DNA of 64,000 bases, taken from IMG/VR virus record IMGVR_UViG_3300021295_000001. One strand, given 5' to 3'. Below the pieces are notes generated by a model. It was not told the origin of the DNA. It saw only the letters and a program-made list of their open reading frames with translations, and did no database searches. The stretch is from a virus. Taxonomy: Duplodnaviria; Caudoviricetes. Positions 2-11,440 of the stretch are shown piece by piece. The position numbers and the translations under genes were made by a program. Within the stretch, counting starts at the first letter, position 1; every line of letters starts with the position of its first letter.

Positions 2-1858
2 GAGAACCTCGACGAATACTACCCCAGTTTCGCCGTCGGGACCACGCAGGTCGAGCGCTACCAATACGAGCCAGACACGTTCGTTTTCGACGCCCCCGAG
101 CAGTTGGAGGCGTACAAACTTTCCAAACCCACCATATTCAGATTCGGGAAGTCCGAGGGAAAATTCACCGAGGACCTCACTCTCAAGGATTTCATCGAGA
201 AGGGTGAATACGTCGCCGACATCACGCCAGAGGACAAGGCCCGCATAAAGAGGTCCCTTAACAACAAGGTGGGACGCTCCACCCTTTTGCACGACGGGCT
301 CCTGAAGGAATCCGCCGTCACCGACGATTCCATCGACTACCTTAGGGATTGGTTGCAATTGGGCAAGGAACCCCACATGAAGGGATTCGACGCCGACGCC
401 AAGAAGGCGTTCATCGTGTTCCCGACAGGGGTGGACGTCGAGGACCTAAAGTCCAAAAGCGGAATCGGAACTTGGCTCGACGAGCACGGTTTCGATTGGA
501 AGGCCGAGAAGACCGACTACACCTACAAAACGGTCGGGTCCTTCAACACGAGGACCATGAGCAAATCTGGCGCTGGTCGCGACAGGACGCTCAAGGACAG
601 GGTCAGGCTCGACGTATCTTGGGGCGACGACGGCCTCAACGAGGACATCGAGGTCCACGACGAACTCAATCCGAAACTCTTCGACGGGGACGAACTCAAA
701 CCAGAGGTCAAGGAAGCCGTCAGGAACATCGCCGACGCGTTCATGGAAGGGTTGGCCGAGGATGGCATAAAGTTCAACCTCAAGGACATCGTCCTCATCG
801 GCTCCAACGTGAACTACAACTACAACAAGGACAGCGATTTGGACATCCACCTAATCGCCGATTCGTCTGGATTGGAATGCCCAGACGAACTGTACCCGCT
901 CCTATATTCCGCCTACCGTAGCATCTTCAACAAGAACTACGAGATAACCATCAAGGGAATCCCCGCCGAGATTTACGTGGAGATGGACGAACCGCAGGGA
1001 AGGTCCAACGGCGTATACTCAATCAACGACGGTTGGGTCAAGAAGCCCGAGCGCAGGGAAATCCCCGAAATAGACATGGAGGCATTCGAAAAACTCTTCT
1101 CCGAGTGGGAGGACAGGTACTTCGAGGTCAAGAAGGAGGCCGAGGAGGAACTCGCTTCGCGCGAGCATCCGCTCGACGAGTCCTTGATAACCGAGGGAAC
1201 AACGTCGGCCGACGTCTACGACTTCGTGGAGGACGTATACGACCTGCGTAAGGAATCCATCGCCAAGGACGGCGAGTTCGGATTGGGCAACCTCGTTTTC
1301 AAGCAGATGCGCGCCCTCGGTTACCTCGACGAACTGAAGGAACTTATAAGGCAACTTAAGTCGAAGGAACTGTCGCTAGAGAACCTAAGCGAATCGGCCG
1401 AGGGGAAATCCGAAGTCGAGGAACTGTTCTGGAACATCAGGGACGAGGACGACAAGGTAGCGGTCGCAATCCTCGACAAGCACAACGGGAAGAACATAAT
1501 GTACGACGCGAAGAAGGACAAGATAGTGCCCGTTCCCAAATCCAAAACCAAGAACCGCTTCGCCGTCACAAGGGAGCAACTGAGGGACGGCGTGTTGGCC
1601 TCAGAGGAGGAGATGCGCTCGTTCATGAAGGAAGTCGGAGGCGACGAAATCGTGTTCTACGCCGACAGGGACAACCTTTGGGGCGGTGAGTACAGCGTCA
1701 TAACCAAAGACGAGGAAAAGGCCCGCAAAGCCTGCGCGAAATACAATCAGGACGGATACGCCGTCTTCAATTCGAAGGGCGATTACGAGATGTCCCGCGA
1801 CAGAAACGGCGAGAGAATCAGGGAGAAACCAGTTGACAAAGCCTCCGAACCCGAGTAA
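2..1858 (+). CDS. Modular acidic protein with a Pol-beta-superfamily nucleotidyltransferase domain (5'-truncated by the window)
   Basis: The frame is open from position 2, so the ORF-track start at 104 is not the true start. Motif LIGSNVNYNYNKDSDLDIHL (GS..DxD), then ..EIYVE and a C-terminal GEFGLGNLVFKQMR helix. Modules are separated by LKES, LNED, ESLITE and NLSES. Confidence 0.75.
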   Translation, partial: ENLDEYYPSFAVGTTQVERYQYEPDTFVFDAPEQLEAYKLSKPTIFRFGKSEGKFTEDLTLKDFIEKGEYVADITPEDKARIKRSLNNKVGRSTLLHDGLLKESAVTDDSIDYLRDWLQLGKEPHMKGFDADAKKAFIVFPTGVDVEDLKSKSGIGTWLDEHGFDWKAEKTDYTYKTVGSFNTRTMSKSGAGRDRTLKDRVRLDVSWGDDGLNEDIEVHDELNPKLFDGDELKPEVKEAVRNIADAFMEGLAEDGIKFNLKDIVLIGSNVNYNYNKDSDLDIHLIADSSGLECPDELYPLLYSAYRSIFNKNYEITIKGIPAEIYVEMDEPQGRSNGVYSINDGWVKKPERREIPEIDMEAFEKLFSEWEDRYFEVKKEAEEELASREHPLDESLITEGTTSADVYDFVEDVYDLRKESIAKDGEFGLGNLVFKQMRALGYLDELKELIRQLKSKELSLENLSESAEGKSEVEELFWNIRDEDDKVAVAILDKHNGKNIMYDAKKDKIVPVPKSKTKNRFAVTREQLRDGVLASEEEMRSFMKEVGGDEIVFYADRDNLWGGEYSVITKDEEKARKACAKYNQDGYAVFNSKGDYEMSRDRNGERIREKPVDKASEPE

Positions 1859-1861
1859 TAT
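1833..1861 (+). promoter_or_regulatory. sigma70-type promoter
   Basis: TTGACA(1833)-17 nt-TAATAT(1856). Confidence 0.6.
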
Positions 1862-1884
1862 ATAAGGGCATGGAGGAAAAACCA

Positions 1885-2199
1885 ATGGCAAAAGAAGAAT
1901 TCGACGCAATCAACAACTCGCAATACAAGGAAGCAATCGCCAAGTACTTCGATTACTCGTTCGACTTCGCCTTCCTGGACATCGTCGCCAGAATCATCGA
2001 CAGGGTCGAGGACTTCTCAGACACCGAGGAAATCTACGAGGCGATGGACTCCGCGCTAATCTACACCGAGGACCAGTGGAGGGTCATGATGCATTATCAA
2101 ACCCCGAGCGAGGCCGACTTCGGGACCGCCTGCGAATACCTTCTGTCTGACGTGGAGGCCATCTGCGAGCACATCGCGGAAGCCTCCGACGAGGCCTGA
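1885..2199 (+). CDS. Small acidic protein, possible Ocr-like DNA mimic
   Basis: GGAGG RBS before ATG 1885; very D/E-rich; segment IYEAMDSALIYTEDQWRVM. Confidence 0.45.
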   Translation: MAKEEFDAINNSQYKEAIAKYFDYSFDFAFLDIVARIIDRVEDFSDTEEIYEAMDSALIYTEDQWRVMMHYQTPSEADFGTACEYLLSDVEAICEHIAEASDEA

Positions 2200-2231
2200 T
2201 TCACGAAACCGCAAAAACGCGCGAATCGTAA

Positions 2232-2240
2232 TGCTAAATT
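2232..2240 (+). promoter_or_regulatory. Putative phage late promoter TGCTAAATT
   Basis: One of 9 copies of (T)GCTAAATT found at gene or operon boundaries. Confidence 0.65.
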
Positions 2241-2307
2241 ATAAGCCCCGCCCAAAAGGCGTGAAAACGGCGCCCCGCACCCAGTGTTCGGGAACGCAGT
2301 ATAATAA

Positions 2308-3475
2308 GGGTGTCCGACGCGGATTCGTCCGCCTCGGGTCCGATTCGGATTCGTCCGATTCGGGACTGACGATGACCCAACGTCGTTAACCAGGGTCGTG
2401 ACGGCGGAACCCCATCAACGGGGTCCGCACGTCGAACTGAGCGGTGCATCGCTCGAAGCGGGTCGGCCCGCGAACAAACTTGCACACCCCATCGGGAGGG
2501 TCGACTCCTTCCGTATGAACGCGGGGATATGACGGGACCCCGTAGGCGCGGTCAAAACCGCGGTTCCCAGACGGCTTCGTCTGGGAGGGGAAGGAAAACC
2601 CCGAAAACCAAAGCGCCGAGCGATAACCACGTTAGAGCCGTGGGCTCTCCGCATCCAGATACGGTACGGGGAGCGCTGGTTGTAGCGCGTCTCGGCACTC
2701 ACGACCGCCACGTCGTTAAACTGCCAACGGTGGCTTCGGGTTCGATTCCCGAACCGTCCTGATAGACAATATCTGGGCGGTGAAGTATGGGCAGGTTGCC
2801 ACAGTCCACCGTTAAACGTCTTGGAGGCGAGACGTTAAATCCCTTCCCGAGCAGCAAGGCACTCGTTAAAAGAGTCTTTCAGTACAGCGTGGGCAGGAGT
2901 TAGTCCCGTTCCTTATAACCGTGGAACGCACGAAAGAGGTCGCCAACATCGGCGACCGCAAGTAATGGTCGGCAATGATTCGCCGATGGGCAAAACACCC
3001 TTAATGTGCCCTCACCCTTTAACGGAACATGGATAGGCTCGGGAGGACCCGCGCGGGGCCATTGAAGGACCTTCTGGTTGAAAGGCGGACGGACCGCGCA
3101 ATTAAGGTGGGTTTTCGGGAGAATAGGAACCAGCGAGAACATCCCGACGTCCTAATGTGTCAGACCAACGCGGTGCACCGCTAACCTGACCGCATTGGGA
3201 CGTTAAACATCCTAACGCGACGCCCAGCAATGGGCTATGCCAAGGGACCGCATCGCGGTGGGTATGGCCACGACGCACCGACGGACCCCGTATTCGGGGA
3301 CCGACTCGGCAGTCATAATGTGTGGCCCTTGGCCCACCCAATGGCGCACGCGGTTCGGCGAGTCGCGATTCTGGGAAACGTGCGCCACAACGGTTGCTCC
3401 CCCGTGGCAGTCAACCGACAGACGGGTCCACAAAAACCCTTCGAAGGTAAGCGCCCAAAAGGCGCTTTTCCTTTT
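2308..3475 (+). ncRNA. Candidate large structured non-coding RNA (~1.15 kb); family unassigned
   Basis: No ORF with phage-like codon usage; TATAAT at 2300; many perfect stems with UUCG, GNRA or T-loop caps; long-range helices; intrinsic terminator at 3449-3475. Confidence 0.7.
3449..3475 (+). terminator. Rho-independent terminator
   Basis: AAGCGCC-CAAAA-GGCGCTT followed by TTCCTTTT. Confidence 0.7.
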
Positions 3476-3481
3476 GTTTGG

Positions 3482-3490
3482 TGCTAAATT
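3482..3490 (+). promoter_or_regulatory. Putative late promoter TGCTAAATT
   Basis: Directly after the terminator and before the neck gene. Confidence 0.7.
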
Positions 3491-3521
3491 CACTGATATT
3501 GCCCTAGGGTTATTGTTCAGC

Positions 3522-4232
3522 ATGGATTTGAAGGATTACATCTCAAACATAAAACTCGAATTGACTGGCGGTTTGCTTGAGTTGGAGATTGACGACGAAG
3601 TGATAGCGAAGGTCGTCAACCAATCGCTCAGGGAGGTCCAAAGGTACATAGACGAATCCAGGTTCATAGAGGTACCTTTCGCCAGTTGCATCGACATCGC
3701 TGGGTTCAAATGCTCGGCGATAAAGAAGGTGTACAGGGTAAGCCCCATAGGGGGCGCGGTGTCTGGCTCGTCCAGCGCCATAGACCCGATGTACGCGCAG
3801 ACGTGGGCCCTGTACGGGATAAACAACGCGACGTACAACATAACGCAATTCGCCTACAACTACGCGTCGTACAACACCGTCCTCCAAATAAGGAACTCCC
3901 TGTCGACAGACCTGGCGTTCAGGATGGACAAGCAGGGTGAGAAACTGTACGTCAACGTATCTGGCAACTACCCCGAGAGAATCGTGATTGAGTACATCCC
4001 CATATTCGAGGACGTTTCCGAGGTCAAGGACGCCTATTGGATTGACATACTCCAGAGGCTGTCCCTCGCCATGACGAAGAGGATTCTGGGCAGGGTCAGG
4101 ACCAGGTTCACCCAATCCAACGCCCTTTGGCAACAGGACGGCGAGACCATGCTCGAGGAGGGCAACAGGGAACTGTCCGAGATAAGGGAGATACTGAGGA
4201 CCAATTCCTCGTTGTTCTACCCGATAGATTGA
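3522..4232 (+). CDS. Neck/head-tail adaptor protein (T4 gp13-like)
   Basis: Start MDLKDYISNIKLELTGGLLELEIDD; C-terminus KRILGRVRTRF..DGETMLEEGNRELSEI is typical of gp13-like proteins. The ORF-track extension from 3237 crosses a terminator. Confidence 0.7.
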   Translation: MDLKDYISNIKLELTGGLLELEIDDEVIAKVVNQSLREVQRYIDESRFIEVPFASCIDIAGFKCSAIKKVYRVSPIGGAVSGSSSAIDPMYAQTWALYGINNATYNITQFAYNYASYNTVLQIRNSLSTDLAFRMDKQGEKLYVNVSGNYPERIVIEYIPIFEDVSEVKDAYWIDILQRLSLAMTKRILGRVRTRFTQSNALWQQDGETMLEEGNRELSEIREILRTNSSLFYPID

Positions 4233-4271
4233 CGCGATATAATAATAAATAATAATAAAAGGAGTCGCAAA

Positions 4272-6917
4272 ATGGCCGAAAAAAGCAGACTGGAGATGTT
4301 AGCCTCCAAACTAAACAGGAAACGCGAGGAACTAAACCGCGCTGGTTTTCACGTCGAAGGGACAAGCGACATGGACGTCACGTCGAATTTCAACGACGTG
4401 ATGCCGTTCGTGGCGGTTTACGAGAGCACGGTGATGTCGGAGTTCCCAGAACTCGGCTCCATCGACGAGGCCCTATGCGGACACGACCTCTTCACCGAAA
4501 TGACCGAGAACGGCCTTGATGACAAGACCGCGATAGAATTCATCACGGAGACGATTGGGAAGGCGCTTGGGTCGGACGAAGACGACGAAGAACACGTTGG
4601 CGAATCCTCGCTGACGGAGGGTGCTTCCAACTTCCACGGGGACGGTGGCGCCGAATGGTTGCCTTTATTGGTCTTCATGTCTGACGAAGAGGTATGGGAC
4701 AAAATCAAATACTATGCCGAGCAGGAATACGTCGGCCACGAGGATGAGCAGGATTGGGACGAGTTCCTCCAGGAATTCGCCGACGAGCACTACGACGAAT
4801 ACTCGCAAGGCGTCTGCGTCTTGGACGACGACGAGATTAAGGCCCTCGAGGAGAAGATTGACGAGTTCAACTACGAAATTCACAGGCAAGGCGAGTCCAT
4901 CACTGGTACCGAGGAATACGACGACGGCGACATACTGAAGAACTCCGAGACCGAGATTAAGGGCGGTTATTACGAGGGCTATCAGATTTTCACCGAGTTC
5001 CAGTACAAGGACGACGAGAACCTATCCGAGGAACTCAGGAAGCCGTTCCAGGATTTCTACGCGGAAATCAAAAAGGAATTCGGTTTGACCGAACTTTCCG
5101 TCGCCTACAAGGCGTCCAACGGGGAGACTGGCTACAGAATCGTCGAGGAGGCCCGCGACGAAGCCAAGCGCAACCACAGACTCGGAGAATGCGACAAAGT
5201 CAAGGAATCCGTGAGTTGGTCCTATTTCGACAAATTCGACCCCATATTCGACCAATACCTTCCCGATTACGGGGAGGGCGACGACATGGCCACCCAAGCG
5301 GTGACCGCCGTGTGCAAACTCGTTTACAAGTGGTACAACGACGGCGACGTTTTCGACAACGTCATGCAGAGGTCCATCGTCGGGTTCGGCAACGACCTGG
5401 CGTCATACGCGAACTGGCTTTACCACAACGTCCCCGAGACCAGGAAAATCCTCACGGGAATCAAAAAGGTTAGGAAGGACGGGGATTACGAGGACCTACT
5501 CCAAAAATTGGCCGACGCCGTTTTGGACGCCGAAAAACTCGATGGCCTCAGCCAAAGGAAAAAGGAAGGCTCCGTGTACGAAGGCGACTTCCCGTTCTCA
5601 TACGAGTTCCGTAGCGAAAGCGAATACGACGAATCTCTTCACGAAGACGATGACGAAATCGAGGAAGACGATGAACCTTGGGTTGGATATAAGATTTCCA
5701 CACCAGATTTTCCAGATTCGGAAGATGTGTATTTCGACGATTTAGAAGAAGCGAAAAAGGCATTTGATAAACTCATCGACGAAGGAACAAAGCAAGTAAG
5801 ACTGTATGCAGTTCAGGAGGCGGAATTTTCATATGGCGAGGACATCGAGGAATTGTTGTTCTCTTATGACGACGATGACGAAGACGAATCCATCAAGGAG
5901 TCCAGTAAGGACTACTACGAATACCCCGCTGGCTCTGGTTGCCACGTAAGGGAGACCGAATCCAAATTCGTCGCCATAGGCAAAAACGGGGAGACAATCG
6001 GCGAATCCGACACCAAGGCTGGAGCCGAGGCCCTAATCGACGCCCAATGCAAGGAATGCGTTAATGAGGACACCGTGAAGCAGGGTGGCCACTGGGTCAA
6101 CAAAGGCAAGGAAGGCACCCACGGAAAGTTCAGGACCAAGAAGCAGGCCGACGCCCAGCGCAAGGCCATGTTCGCCAACGGATACAAGGAATCCACTGAC
6201 CTTGGGGAAGGTGTTAAATACCACGATTTCTTGGACGATAAGGAAAAGATGAGGGATTTCAAAAAACTATCAAAGAGTGATTTCCTTAAATCGTATTCCT
6301 ATCTGACGGAACTTGAATACGACCTTACCGCTAAAGCGCTTAAAGACAAAAATAAAGCCAACGAATCCGCCGACTTGGGAGAATCCAAGAATAGCGATAA
6401 CCCGTATCTTAAGAACACCCGCATCAAACTCGGCAAAGGCGAGCACGTCAACAAAAACGCTGGCGACCCAGTCAAGAACATGCAGGCCTTCAACCACGCC
6501 ATGGGCGAAGGAATCGACGCCGAAGCCGAACCAGAAGGCGAGTGCGACCACGATTGCGAGGCTTCCATGCTCTCCAACGAGTTCAGCAAAAACGTCAAGG
6601 ACGAATGGGACGCCATCGAGGGATACAACATCCTCAAAACGGAGATAGAGGCGTCGAGCCTCACCGACGAGGAGAAGGCCAAACTGGTCGCCATCGTCGA
6701 CGACATCCGCGGTGAGGAATACAGGCACGTTGGCCAATTGGAGACCGCCGTCAAGACGGTCGCCCCGCAGGCCGACGACATAGAGAAGGGCAAGGAGGAG
6801 GCCGACGGGCAGGAAGCGTCCGCCGAGCATCACGAAGAGCCCGAGGAACACGCTGAGGAAATCGCCTCCGAAGAGGAGGAGACCATCGTGGAGCCCAAGG
6901 AGGGAGAAGGCGAATAG
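4272..6917 (+). CDS. Large acidic modular protein; putative protease-processed virion internal polyprotein with a C-terminal ferritin-like module
   Basis: AAGGAG RBS; repeated linkers ESSLTE, ESLHE, ESIKES, ESTDLGE, ESADLGE; C-terminal EWDAIEGY..IRGEEYRHVGQL. Confidence 0.6.
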   Translation: MAEKSRLEMLASKLNRKREELNRAGFHVEGTSDMDVTSNFNDVMPFVAVYESTVMSEFPELGSIDEALCGHDLFTEMTENGLDDKTAIEFITETIGKALGSDEDDEEHVGESSLTEGASNFHGDGGAEWLPLLVFMSDEEVWDKIKYYAEQEYVGHEDEQDWDEFLQEFADEHYDEYSQGVCVLDDDEIKALEEKIDEFNYEIHRQGESITGTEEYDDGDILKNSETEIKGGYYEGYQIFTEFQYKDDENLSEELRKPFQDFYAEIKKEFGLTELSVAYKASNGETGYRIVEEARDEAKRNHRLGECDKVKESVSWSYFDKFDPIFDQYLPDYGEGDDMATQAVTAVCKLVYKWYNDGDVFDNVMQRSIVGFGNDLASYANWLYHNVPETRKILTGIKKVRKDGDYEDLLQKLADAVLDAEKLDGLSQRKKEGSVYEGDFPFSYEFRSESEYDESLHEDDDEIEEDDEPWVGYKISTPDFPDSEDVYFDDLEEAKKAFDKLIDEGTKQVRLYAVQEAEFSYGEDIEELLFSYDDDDEDESIKESSKDYYEYPAGSGCHVRETESKFVAIGKNGETIGESDTKAGAEALIDAQCKECVNEDTVKQGGHWVNKGKEGTHGKFRTKKQADAQRKAMFANGYKESTDLGEGVKYHDFLDDKEKMRDFKKLSKSDFLKSYSYLTELEYDLTAKALKDKNKANESADLGESKNSDNPYLKNTRIKLGKGEHVNKNAGDPVKNMQAFNHAMGEGIDAEAEPEGECDHDCEASMLSNEFSKNVKDEWDAIEGYNILKTEIEASSLTDEEKAKLVAIVDDIRGEEYRHVGQLETAVKTVAPQADDIEKGKEEADGQEASAEHHEEPEEHAEEIASEEEETIVEPKEGEGE

Positions 6918-6955
6918 CCTTCCTTTCCGCTTATAACCAAGGAGGAACGACATCA

Positions 6956-8635
6956 ATGTTCGGAATCAAATACGCGTTCATGCCACTCGTTCAATACGAG
7001 GACGAAGAGGAGGCCTACATAAGGTCTTTGCGCGAGGCCAAGGAAACCACGTTCGACATATCCGAGGATGGAATGTTCGACAGGGGCAACGCCTATTTCT
7101 ACGCGAGGACTGGTAGCAAGGTCGATTTGGACGGCAAGGAATACACCGTCACGACCGACGAGGAAGGCAACCACAGGATTGGCTATTCCGACACGATATA
7201 CCTTAAGGACGCCGACGGCAACGTAACGACCGTGTCCAAGGCCGAGTTCATCGAGAAGGCCACGCTCCTGAAAGAGGAGGCCAAGCCCGAGGAATACGGC
7301 GTTTGGCAGAACGTCGAGGCATCGAAGTACAAGAGCGGTGACCTCGCCGTTGGCTTCGTCGCCAAAGGCATGTCCAAGGAGGAAGCCGAGGCCAAAGCCA
7401 AGGAACTCTCCGACAAATACTGCAAATTCGGCGCTTGCACCTACGAGGTCAGGAAGGTCGACGAGTCGTTGGCCGAATCAGCCATCGTCGAGGAGCCCAT
7501 CAAGTTGCTCGAACCCAAGTTCGATTCCAGGAAATCCTTCTACAAGAAAGCCAAGGTCGACGAAAGGGAAGACGGCACGAAGATACTTTGGTCGTACAAC
7601 ACCCCAGTCTGCAAGATAAAGGACGGGAAGGCCACGTTGCTCAAGAGGGGTTACCTCGGATGGTTCTCCTCCCCCACCACGCTCCGCCACGTGAAGGACT
7701 TCCTCCAGCAGAACGGATTCAAGATAGGTTCGAAATCGGAACTCGCCAAGATGTACGAAACCGAACGCTACGACGAGTCGCTAATCACCGAGGCGGACGC
7801 CATGAAGGCCAACCTAGACGACGAGAAGGAGGTCGGGGAAGCCAAGGAAATCCTGACCAAGGAACACGACGAGGAAGTGGAGCAGATAGTGGACGTCGAC
7901 GCCAACACCGTCGCGGAACTCAAGGACTCCTACGTCGGTAACGTCATATTGCAATGCCCCGTGTGCAGGACGTTGCTCTACAAGAAGCCAGACGCCATCG
8001 AGAAAGCCGAGGATTCCGACATATACAACGTCGGCGAGGCCTGCCTGCATTGCGGTAGCGAGGACGGATACGGCTTGGTTGGCCAGGTCGCCGAACTGTC
8101 CGTGAAACCAGAAGTGGAGGACGACTCCACCACTGGCAAGGAAACAGATTCCCCCGACGTCGAGCCCGACAAGGAGGGCACCGAGTCCGAGGACGAGGTA
8201 GGCGTTGAGGTCGAGGAGACCGAGAAGGTCGGGGAACCCGTGGTAGAGGAATCGCTCGCCAAGCCCGCAGAGGCCGACGAATTCGACGACGCGTCGTTCA
8301 ACGCGCTGGTCACCGATTTCCTTACCGAGACTTACAACAACGTCACGGGATTCACCGCCAACGAGGTGACGAAGGAAGGCTCGGACATAACCGTGTCTGG
8401 CTCAATCGCCTACGCGAGCGGTAAGGAACGCTCGACCGAGTTCAAACTGAAGGAGTCCGTCGAAGGCGGTTCAATCTCCTGGGAGGGTTCGAACCCGACG
8501 TTCGCTGGCGGTTCGTTCAGATTCGACGTCGTCAGCGAGGGGAACGTGGCGAAGGCCAAGGCCCTGTCCTACGAGATTGAGGCCAAGTCCGTCAACGAGT
8601 CCTACAAGGTCAAGGGGCGCATATCCCGCGCCTAA
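6956..8635 (+). CDS. Acidic modular protein with Zn-ribbon; putative virion internal polyprotein
   Basis: AAGGAGG RBS; linkers SLREA, LLKEE, DESLAES, DESLITEA; CPVC..CLHC; internal SFYKKAKV..SYNTPV..TTLRHVKDFL module. Confidence 0.55.
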   Translation: MFGIKYAFMPLVQYEDEEEAYIRSLREAKETTFDISEDGMFDRGNAYFYARTGSKVDLDGKEYTVTTDEEGNHRIGYSDTIYLKDADGNVTTVSKAEFIEKATLLKEEAKPEEYGVWQNVEASKYKSGDLAVGFVAKGMSKEEAEAKAKELSDKYCKFGACTYEVRKVDESLAESAIVEEPIKLLEPKFDSRKSFYKKAKVDEREDGTKILWSYNTPVCKIKDGKATLLKRGYLGWFSSPTTLRHVKDFLQQNGFKIGSKSELAKMYETERYDESLITEADAMKANLDDEKEVGEAKEILTKEHDEEVEQIVDVDANTVAELKDSYVGNVILQCPVCRTLLYKKPDAIEKAEDSDIYNVGEACLHCGSEDGYGLVGQVAELSVKPEVEDDSTTGKETDSPDVEPDKEGTESEDEVGVEVEETEKVGEPVVEESLAKPAEADEFDDASFNALVTDFLTETYNNVTGFTANEVTKEGSDITVSGSIAYASGKERSTEFKLKESVEGGSISWEGSNPTFAGGSFRFDVVSEGNVAKAKALSYEIEAKSVNESYKVKGRISRA

Positions 8636-9544: not shown

Positions 9545-10212
9545 TGGCCGTTAGGTTCTACGACGACGCGCTCGCGTCCAAGATACAGAACTGGATTAAG
9601 GACGACTCGATAAAGGTCCTTAAGCCAGACGAGACTTCGAGGCTCTTCCGCATGAAGGCCGACGAGGGCATGGACAAGCCCATAGCGTTGCCCATCATCT
9701 CCCTATCCAGGGGCACCGACATCGAGATTCTCAACGTCGGGAAGAAGCCATTGAGTTACGACGGCCTCAGGTTGCGTTGCTACGACAAGCGCGGAAACGA
9801 GGTAACCCCCTCGTCGTCCGCTTACAAACTGAACGCGATACCGATTAGCATATCGTACAACCTCGACATATACACGAGGGACCTGGAGGAGTGCGACGAG
9901 TACATGAGGAACTTCGTGTTCAACTTCGTCAACTACCCGAAACTCACGATAACAATACCCTACAACGACGTGGACATCCACCACGATTCGACGGTGAGGC
10001 TTGAGCCAGTCGTGACGGACAACAGCGACATCCCAGAGAGGCTGTTCCCGTCCCAGTTCACGAGGTACACGCTTAGGCTCGTCGTCGACGACGCATACCT
10101 GTTCAGCGTGCCCGCGAAGCCGTTCGTGGCCATCTCCGAGGTGGGCCTCCGCGTAAAGGACTCGCCCGACGTCGATTCCACGTGGTCGGACGAAATGCCG
10201 ATAGGGGCTTAG
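9544..10212 (+). CDS. Tail terminator / sheath stabiliser (gp15-like)
   Basis: LPIISLSR..PISISYNLDIYT pattern; directly upstream of the sheath gene. Confidence 0.6.
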   Translation: MAVRFYDDALASKIQNWIKDDSIKVLKPDETSRLFRMKADEGMDKPIALPIISLSRGTDIEILNVGKKPLSYDGLRLRCYDKRGNEVTPSSSAYKLNAIPISISYNLDIYTRDLEECDEYMRNFVFNFVNYPKLTITIPYNDVDIHHDSTVRLEPVVTDNSDIPERLFPSQFTRYTLRLVVDDAYLFSVPAKPFVAISEVGLRVKDSPDVDSTWSDEMPIGA

Positions 10213-10216
10213 CGTT

Positions 10217-10225
10217 TGCTAAATT
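10217..10225 (+). promoter_or_regulatory. Putative late promoter TGCTAAATT
   Basis: Upstream of the sheath RBS (AGGAG). Confidence 0.7.
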
Positions 10226-10255
10226 ATATGATTTACCAGCATTAGGAGACACAAA

Positions 10256-11440
10256 ATGCCGAAAACCGTAATAAAAGAGATAGACAACACTGGCGTGCGC
10301 ATAGAAGACGGCGCCGACACTGTTTATATCATCGCCGAGAAGGCCAGTGGCGCCAGCATGGCCAAGCCAGTTTTGTGCACCCGCCTTTCCAAATTGACAA
10401 GCAAGGAAAGCGAATTAGCCTCGACGGGGCTTGGATACAAATTGGCCAAGTCGCTTTTGACCAGGGGCATCCACGTTCTCTATCAGGAGTTCGCCAGCGA
10501 TGGCGAGAGTGGCATAACGTTCTTGGAAGAGGGCGCTGACCTAACCAAAGCCATCGAGGACCAGAACCTGTACGACATCAGGTTCATCGTGTCTGGCGTT
10601 CCCCTCACCGACGCCCAACAGTTGAGGATTCTTGAAATCGCGTCCGTCAGGGGCGATTGCGTCGCGTTGCTGGACCACCCCGAGGATTGCGAATCGGAAA
10701 AACAGGTCGAGGAATACTTCTCTTCGCTCGTCGGCACCGCCGTGCCGCCCGACTCTGCCATAAACTGGTCAAACGCCGTGGCCGTAACCCCGTGGTATTC
10801 CGACTCCGAGATAGGGGACAGCGTACCCGCTTCGTTCGGCTACCTAATCGCTTATGCCGAAAGCGTCAGGCTGAACCCGTCGTGGTTCGCCGTCGCTGGC
10901 GCGTTCAGGGGCGTCATCCCCACATTGGTTGGCGTGAACGTGAATTACACCTCGGCCGAAGTCGAGGCCTTGCAATGCGTGCCATTCGGTGGCTCCTCAA
11001 GCGCCGAGCCTACCCTATCGTTCGCCATCAACCCGATTTCCTACGTCCGCCCAGTCGGCTACGTAATCAACGGCAACAGGACCTTGCTCGTCAACGAAGG
11101 CGCCACCAGCGAAGACGTGGTTCTCAAGGCCACCTCGTTCCTCAACATAAGGAACCTCGTTTCGGCGTTGCACAAGAGGATGTTCGAAGCAGCCAACAGA
11201 TACCGTTTCGAGCAGAACGACGACCTGCTTTGGGTCAACTTCACCTCGGAGATAATCCCGCTTTTGGAACAGATGAAATCCGACAGGGGACTCAACAACT
11301 ACACCATCACGAGGCTCGCCACCGACAAGAAGGCCCAGGTTCGCGGAAGGGTGACCATATCGCCCATCGAGGCCGTCGAGGACTTCGATTTGGAAATCGA
11401 GTTGTCCGATTCAACGGACGAGCCCGTCGTGATTGCCTAA
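10256..11440 (+). CDS. Contractile tail sheath protein
   Basis: RGDCVALLD, WFAVAGAFRG, INPI, GNRTL, LNIRNL, FEQNDD, PIEAVE. Confidence 0.9.
   Translation: MPKTVIKEIDNTGVRIEDGADTVYIIAEKASGASMAKPVLCTRLSKLTSKESELASTGLGYKLAKSLLTRGIHVLYQEFASDGESGITFLEEGADLTKAIEDQNLYDIRFIVSGVPLTDAQQLRILEIASVRGDCVALLDHPEDCESEKQVEEYFSSLVGTAVPPDSAINWSNAVAVTPWYSDSEIGDSVPASFGYLIAYAESVRLNPSWFAVAGAFRGVIPTLVGVNVNYTSAEVEALQCVPFGGSSSAEPTLSFAINPISYVRPVGYVINGNRTLLVNEGATSEDVVLKATSFLNIRNLVSALHKRMFEAANRYRFEQNDDLLWVNFTSEIIPLLEQMKSDRGLNNYTITRLATDKKAQVRGRVTISPIEAVEDFDLEIELSDSTDEPVVIA

Follow-up and report, generated by a model that had tools for sequence, protein, structure and literature searches.

In bacteriophage T4, the prohead protease gp21 cuts after L/I-X-E, and the cargo of the head is targeted by a 10-residue N-terminal peptide that ends in a gp21 site (PMC9026906). 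This cargo is injected with the DNA, and an anti-restriction role has been shown for IPI* (PMC9026906). Polyvalent proteins, described by Iyer, Burroughs, Anand, de Souza, and Aravind in 2017 (PMC5512222), are likewise predicted to travel with the phage DNA; they are large, combine many unrelated domains, and are encoded beside head-morphogenesis genes. In this study, we analyzed a stretch of 64,000 nucleotides (hereafter the window), which corresponds to bases 11533-75532 of a 128.8-kb linear IMG/VR contig (IMGVR_UViG_3300021295_000001, estimated to be ~86% complete) from an uncultured, T4-type phage of a Caudoviricetes myophage lineage. Three large open reading frames (ORFs) of the window, ORFs A, B, and C, and an adjacent protein of 1775 amino acids (aa) appear to be protease-processed head-cargo polyproteins of this myophage, a reading to which we give a probability of roughly 0.6. 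That ORFs A, B, and C are packaged, cleaved, and ejected, and that their modules act early or against defence, is what we infer.

An earlier reading made from the letters of the DNA (hereafter the sequence-only reading) had described the three ORFs as unrelated modules joined by prohead-protease-type linkers, and had proposed that effectors fused to head-targeted carriers are cut free during maturation and injected. The present analysis partly supports this head-cargo delivery. The three ORFs and every linker listed were found at the places given for them; the modules are putative effectors, most of them having no recognisable function.

Linkers of ORFs A, B, and C

A recurring linker, ES-(L/I)-x-E-[GSAD] or [LIV]-x-E-[ASGD], was found in all three ORFs, each of which holds 5-9 modules with separate homologues. 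Their parts are as follows (positions in the window).

ORF A, 2-1858, + strand: last 618 codons of a 667-aa gene (L001:11387-13390) whose start lies 147 nt upstream of the window
A1, 2-313, + strand: N-terminal domain, ends LLKE
A2, 314-643, + strand: insert, ends LNE
A3, 644-1195, + strand: Pol-beta-type nucleotidyltransferase core, ends DESLITE
A4, 1196-1393, + strand: helical tail of the same nucleotidyltransferase family, ends NLSE
A5, 1394-1855, + strand: module A5
ORF B, 4272-6917, + strand: 881 aa, net charge ~-127
B1, 4272-4619, + strand: module ending SSLTE
B2, 4620-5147, + strand: module ending IVE
Spacer of ORF B, 5148-5207, + strand: ends VKE
B3, 5208-5684, + strand: helical bundle plus acidic tail including DESLHED
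B4, 5685-5900, + strand: module ending DESIKE
B5, 5901-6068, + strand: module ending VNE
B6, 6069-6209, + strand: module ending STDLGE
B7, 6210-6383, + strand: module ending SADLGE
B8, 6384-6914, + strand: C-terminal part, conserved, containing a helix pair of ferritin-like type (E..Y..EExxH)
ORF C, 6956-8635, + strand: 559 aa
N-terminal leader of ORF C, 6956-7036, + strand: ends SLRE
C2, 7067-7276, + strand: module ending LLKE
C3, 7277-7465, + strand: module ending VDE, then SLAE
C4, 7493-7771, + strand: DUF8033 (ORF C residues 181-269; phrog_4264, E 1.3e-25)
DESLITEA, 7772-7795, + strand: linker of ORF C
Four-Cys zinc ribbon of ORF C, 7868-8095, + strand: invariant C334, C337, C363, and C366
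Acidic spacer of ORF C, 8096-8260, + strand
C-terminal domain of ORF C, 8261-8632, + strand: beta-barrel-like

Enrichment of the linker was judged against composition-preserving shuffles. The long motif ES-x0-2-[LI]-x1-2-E-[ASGD] occurred eight times in the three proteins against 0.47 expected, and none of 2000 shuffles reached eight; this motif was defined only after the sequence had been viewed, which does not apply to the simple T4-type motif [LI]xE[ASGD], found 21 times against 9.3 expected. The simple motif was counted 17 times in the adjacent 1775-aa protein (6.0 expected) and 10 times in another acidic protein of 1281 aa (7.3 expected), and it showed no enrichment across the other ~35,000 aa of the proteome (81 observed, 85 expected). 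The sequence-only reading would have been refuted by a motif equally frequent in acidic non-virion proteins, and the counts for the rest of the proteome came out in its favour. Because the motif is enriched in these proteins and not in the rest of the proteome, acidity alone does not explain it.

DESLITE, noticed earlier in two different genes, indeed occurs at nt 1175 in ORF A and at nt 7772 in ORF C. The two copies differ at four synonymous positions; therefore, the peptide is conserved and not the DNA, and a DNA-level repeat or a recent DNA duplication as their origin is ruled out. The same divergence bears on a rather unlikely alternative, namely that the ORFs encode unprocessed polyvalent proteins, which are packaged or remain in the cytoplasm as intact chains and in which ES-L-x-E is a flexible acidic linker tolerating in-frame recombination. 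The virion RNA polymerase of phage N4 is a precedent, being packaged uncut (PMC5512222), and the position of the linkers in disordered segments would suit such chains: an AF2 model of ORF C (mean pLDDT 69.8) showed confident domains, with low-pLDDT segments at residues 28-36, 175-184, and 276-283, which are the linkers. However, the synonymous differences within DESLITE speak against a recombination signal at the DNA level, and a generic linker would not have to keep a fixed L/I-x-E|small pattern in family members that are only distantly related.

The ORF C family comprises at least 176 proteins that share the N-terminal leader, the four-Cys zinc ribbon, and the C-terminal beta-rich domain. 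The leader reads ..AFKALED..D and is followed by a basic stretch and then by the first L/V-x-E|S site. Between the conserved parts stands a variable set of modules, of which the minimal members (327-333 aa) have none. ES[LI]xE was observed 87 times in a set of 120 members (8.3 expected), and the 4-mers repeated most within single proteins of the family include LKEE, ESLK, LKES, and SLKE. Furthermore, 208 of the 356 homology junction peaks lay within five residues of a [LIV]xE[ASGDE] site, with 66 expected, although relatedness among the sequences makes these site and junction counts dependent on one another.

Homologues and turnover of the modules

Residues 313-445 of ORF B, which lie in module B3, matched ~60 IMG/VR loci, where the homologue is mostly a stand-alone protein of about 140 aa. 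Residue 2 of the stand-alone proteins aligns with residue 313 of ORF B, which is the residue following VKE. A large protein database contained 1053 shorter homologues of ORF B (E <= 0.001), and the best 120 of these 1053 were all stand-alone proteins of the B3 type without a Pfam family. Overall, more than 1000 stand-alone B3 proteins are known, with lengths of about 140-160 aa and a start directly behind the position of the linker Glu. About one sixth of the stand-alone B3 proteins carry a short leader, and several such leaders end LKE|S, LTE|S, or LTE|G. The alignment indicated that the domain continues as an acidic tail whose last residue is aromatic. DESLHED, which had been listed as a linker between modules, is present in ORF B but lies inside this tail and belongs to B3. 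The predicted structure of B3 was a confident helical bundle (pLDDT 85, pTM 0.83), for which Foldseek and VIA-align returned a generic helical bundle only (best Z 5.8).

Modules B7 and B8 each have stand-alone homologues as well. Those of B8 (L065:9845-10345 and L067:9797-10345) open with a 10-residue leader, MKF.KL.LDE, followed by S; in length and pattern this leader is similar to the capsid targeting sequence of T4 and its gp21 site, a likeness and nothing more. The core of B8 (window 6576-6821, ORF B residues 769-850) is a helix pair with DE..I..Y ... EE..HVGQL, invariant in four homologues. Its best PDB profile match was to the ferritin-like cargo of the Pyrococcus furiosus encapsulin, at a weak E of 0.09, and a rubrerythrin match in two of the stand-alone homologues (E 0.0085) was below the cut-off. 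An Atlas structure search with the core gave a generic helical hairpin only and was uninformative. On this weak evidence, the core may represent a module similar to encapsulated ferritins, carried within a head cargo protein of a phage.

ORF A matched phrog_36119 (E 5e-32), and its homologues in GenBank phages are annotated as nucleotidyltransferases. Residues 261-499 of the full protein matched proteins of cyanophages, Lak phages, and Maribacter phages that stand alone, are nucleotidyltransferase-like, and carry GS-x10-DxD. ORF A shows the Pol-beta-fold signature G-[GS]-x(9-13)-D-x-[DE] in the form of GS, ten residues, and DLD, and a relaxed single-module search gave Pfam Polbeta/NTP_transf_2 at E 0.013-0.014, below the cut-off. 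In the case of ORF C, PF26096 (DUF8033) was found among precomputed assignments for the protein and its relatives, and Atlas structure comparison gave TM values of 0.75-0.86 to DUF8033 clusters. In SPO1-like phages, DUF8033 has a gene of its own (~95 aa), which in phage Grass lies within the terminal repeats; a literature search found no paper mentioning it. Whole ORF C gave no match in an IMG/VR search, and Foldseek with its model against PDB and BFVD returned generic beta-barrels, DUF8033, and one uncharacterised homologue, with no function indicated. Taken together, the stand-alone homologues of B3, B7, B8, DUF8033, and the nucleotidyltransferase bear out the claim of the sequence-only reading that the blocks are independent modules.

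Next to these homologues, the modules were compared with those of the closest relative, G001, a syntenic genome of 149 kb (99% complete, 77% capsid-protein identity). Residues 1-291 and 725-860 of ORF B have conserved counterparts in G001, which in place of the middle (residues 292-724) has unrelated modules, again joined by ESLKE-type linkers. ORF A contains an insertion of 110 residues bounded by LLKE|S and LNE|D, and its breakpoints lie at residues 149, 261, 447/453, and 513 of the full protein. One polyprotein of G001 holds the N-terminal domain and the nucleotidyltransferase core of ORF A followed by an LRR part, which is kept here in the 1775-aa protein; the piece of ORF A after DESLITE|G sits in a second G001 polyprotein. 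ORF C is colinear in G001. The breakpoints seen for the three ORFs coincide with nearly all listed linkers. The earlier proposal to look in orthologues for gain or loss of modules exactly at linkers was thus answered with gain, loss, and exchange, and in G001 the linkers are the places at which modules have been exchanged for others, added, or transferred from one polyprotein to another. Such shuffling would be expected whether the chains are cut or stay intact as unprocessed polyvalent proteins.

Prohead protease, head genes, and probable late expression

G001 has a T4-type portal and a protease-scaffold protein (phrog_207, E 1.8e-35; 24.8 bits against PF03420, below the 27-bit cut-off). Its capsid gene (L072:8230-10978) is interrupted by a group I intron (RF00028, 57 bits, L072:8510-8835), which is followed by a homing-endonuclease ORF (L072:8855-9889).

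Capsid exon 1 of G001, L072:8230-8523
Capsid exon 2 of G001, L072 ~9902-10978

Exon 1 encodes three L/I-x-E|A sites ahead of the conserved AIPNLIA block, and one of these propeptide sites is SLTE|A, to be compared with SSLTE|G in ORF B. The protease-scaffold protein of G001 contains 13 [LIV]xE[ASGD] sites, mostly in its scaffold tail. Unprocessed polyvalent chains would have no need of linkers that match the motif of the capsid propeptide and the scaffold.

In a second lineage (L003), a B3-containing polyprotein of 817 aa lies directly upstream of the genes for an S77 protease-scaffold (PF03420, E 2.8e-12) and a gp23-type capsid protein. The linkers of the polyprotein read ESKKLxE[GS], and the capsid protein shows LFE|G at residue 64. 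At least 13 proteins, 965-1278 aa long, start with an S77 domain and continue directly with B3 and further modules, with the linkers LLTES, VLES, LCES|V.W, LDES|V.W, and LVEG|V.W; linkers at this place are not expected if the chains remain uncut. Other proteins combine B3 with LPD11, LPD18, and ArdA. In the S77-cargo fusions, which include P0245, P0256, P0261, and P0279, a cargo-type module string replaces the scaffold coiled coil after the S77 domain.

This replacement of the coiled coil behind the protease in some phages could also be read in a very unlikely way, in which the proteins are scaffold-like core fillers that build or size the prohead core, are cut in the manner of T4 gp22, gp67, and gp68, and are expelled prior to packaging of the DNA, so that nothing is delivered. 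Their very acidic charge would fit, and core proteins are typically cut multiply (PMC5694885). However, the modules are predicted folded domains and not coiled coils, they include the enzyme-like nucleotidyltransferase, and their rapid turnover better fits conflict-related cargo than a structural core. The module families also occur as separate small genes of other phages, far from head genes: stand-alone B3 forms have small ORFs as neighbours (median 70-120 aa), and a structural gene was not detected up to 10 kb away. For fused B3 forms, in contrast, a capsid, protease, portal, or terminase gene is at most 10 kb away. This location in head-gene blocks argues against what we regard as the least probable explanation, that these are late cytoplasmic multi-domain proteins which never enter the virion and lie in the structural block incidentally. 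ORFs A and B do lack an obvious T4-like N-terminal targeting peptide, as cytoplasmic proteins would, but B3 is fused to the prohead protease elsewhere, and proteins of the ORF C family open with an invariant leader that has a site after it.

A short motif in front of the structural genes bears on the time of expression.

TGCTAAATT, 3482-3490, + strand: late-promoter-like motif in front of the unit formed by the adaptor, ORF B, and ORF C
Head-tail adaptor (Ad2-like), 3534-4232, + strand: phrog_211, E 5.7e-9; first gene of the unit with ORF B and ORF C

The genome contains 17 exact copies of TGCTAAATT, all on the + strand and nearly all intergenic, where ~1 is expected by chance, and in almost every case a gene starts 10-100 nt after the copy. 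In the window, copies are at 2232, 3482, 10217, 12122, 19568, 29227, 31575, and 49020, and the genes preceded by a copy include that for the 1775-aa protein, the adaptor-B-C unit, the sheath gene, and the gene for the 1281-aa protein. From its distribution, TGCTAAATT probably serves this phage lineage as its late promoter; since it is shared with structural genes, the polyproteins would be co-expressed with them.

The first bases of the contig lie within the gene for a gp23-type major capsid protein (PF07068, E 3.5e-25), of which L001:1-1065 is the equivalent of exon 2 in G001. On the 3' side of this gene follow several small genes, an HNH/Mom-like gene, the 1775-aa acidic protein, which carries a BspA-type LRR, and ORF A. 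The order continues with a 109-aa ORF, an ORF-free stretch of ~1.25-1.3 kb, the head-tail adaptor, ORF B, and ORF C; three small ORFs and then the tail sheath and tail tube genes come next, which places the three polyprotein ORFs between the capsid gene and the sheath gene. The protein just 3' of the capsid gene (L001:2197-3804, 535 aa) matched homing/HNH endonucleases (phrog_3339, E 2.5e-54) and, weakly, Mom-like proteins, and G001 has a separate Mom family gene at the equivalent place (L072:11681-12331, E 1.4e-40).

The ORF-free stretch (window 2232-3476, ~1.25 kb, GC content 58%) holds no plausible ORF and has a TGCTAAATT motif on either side. The syntenic place in the closest relative (L121:13796-14007) shares with it a core of 53 nt (window ~2851-2903) at 92% identity and a further ~125 nt at 69% identity. 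Rfam gave no match to the stretch even at E <= 1. From this conservation, the stretch may encode a conserved non-coding RNA.

Close relatives were not found in GenBank phages by megablast of the region or by tblastn of ORF B, and an exact-match search for a viral contig overlapping that of the window, by which the protease and the capsid N-terminus might be reached, found none. Mis-assembly or a frameshift artefact as the source of the polyproteins was ruled out, because the same architectures recur in many independent contigs.

Proposed scheme and known systems

We propose that each polyprotein would be a string of autonomous modules, with conserved end modules (in ORF C also the N-terminal leader) and variable middle ones, in which exposed linkers carry one or two L/I/V-x-E|S/G/A sites. 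The polyproteins would be produced late, alongside the structural genes, and their conserved end parts would act as carriers into the prohead core. An S77 (gp21-type) prohead protease would then cut the linkers to give pieces of ~5-20 kDa, and the released pieces would leave through the tail with the DNA, like T4 internal proteins. The pieces would be small enough for this exit, so that proteins which other phages make from early genes would arrive ready-made. A single targeting signal could load several cargo proteins in fixed proportion.

Several observations weigh against processed head cargo. ORFs A, B, and C are extremely acidic, and extreme acidity is unusual in proteins kept with packaged DNA and typical of scaffolds. 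Sites of the form [LIV]xE occur within folded modules too. The earlier claim that the linkers join unrelated modules fails for DESLITEG in ORF A, which falls between two parts of one nucleotidyltransferase family. As had been stated earlier, the protease gene is outside the window; it is absent from the whole contig too, in that no S77 protease match was obtained in either. The capsid propeptide and the protease are missing because the contig starts at the equivalent of capsid exon 2, and the specificity of the protease therefore had to be read from the relative. No fold or function was found for most modules by PDB sequence searches, Pfam, Foldseek against PDB and BFVD, or VIA-align; no meaningful match came from comparing the sequences of A, B, and C with the PDB, and Pfam at relaxed thresholds on single modules gave sub-threshold matches only. 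Finally, known substrates of prohead proteases in T4 and SPN3US lose an N-terminal propeptide and yield one mature product (PMC10052503).

A wider generalization, to which we give somewhat less than an even chance, is that T4-type phages of gut or rumen communities share a protease-coded scheme of cargo loading. Small early proteins would be spliced between L-x-E sites, or placed behind a targeting leader or the prohead protease; module families would move freely among the states of early gene, internal protein, and polyprotein bead; and the protease would serve as the release enzyme of a programmable injection system, with one module possibly related to the encapsulin ferritin cargo. If the linkers are cut, they would provide a simple and evolvable means of delivering a changing, ready-made set of proteins at DNA entry. 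The T4 model of single internal proteins would be extended to multi-module polyproteins, and a subset of polyvalent proteins would gain a concrete release mechanism. Several of the module families are abundant, uncatalogued phage domains and are candidates for early-acting or anti-defence functions; one such family counts more than 1000 members and is absent from Pfam. A design rule for packaging foreign proteins in T4-type capsids is also suggested, namely carrier, L-x-E linker, and cargo.

A literature search found no paper describing cargo polyproteins delimited by protease sites, and the closest described systems each share part of the arrangement. In the giant phages related to phiKZ (phiKZ gp175 and SPN3US gp245; PMC5694885, PMC10052503), an S77-related protease cuts after Glu within a three-residue motif, and there are many head-internal proteins and multiple redundant sites, as proposed here. 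However, the motif is S/A-X-E in place of the L/I-x-E found here, and a lengthy N-terminal propeptide is cut off to leave one mature product, a beads-on-a-string build not being reported in those phages.

Like ORFs A, B, and C, polyvalent proteins (PMC5512222) have several unrelated domains (2-15) and are encoded with portal, terminase, or head genes, and their domains also stand alone and shuffle quickly. A further tie is module B3, which elsewhere accompanies LPD11, LPD18, ArdA, and the assemblin-like (S77) peptidase. Catalogued domains of polyvalent proteins (LPD families, ArdA, MPTase, ART, etc.) were not detected in A, B, and C by Pfam. Release of polyvalent proteins has been proposed to occur via an embedded peptidase (PMC5512222), which A, B, and C do not contain; instead, and unlike in polyvalent proteins, the borders of their modules are marked by a repeated short putative site for a separate prohead protease. 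The assemblin-like domain is C-terminal in the polyvalent proteins described (PMC5512222), whereas it is N-terminal in the S77 fusions seen here.

With the T4 internal proteins IPI-III and Alt (PMC9026906), the present system has in common the T4-type capsid protein, the S77 protease lineage (seen in relatives), and the putative cleavage motif L/I-X-E. A short N-terminal leader ending in a site, as in T4, is found in some of the homologues (10 residues, LDE|S). T4 cargo consists of single proteins that lose one short N-terminal peptide, whereas up to ~8 modules with internal sites are joined here, and A, B, and C have no sequence homology to the T4 internal proteins. Operationally, ORFs A, B, and C belong to the theme of polyvalent proteins (PMC5512222), and they would also be a variant of the T4 internal-protein system.

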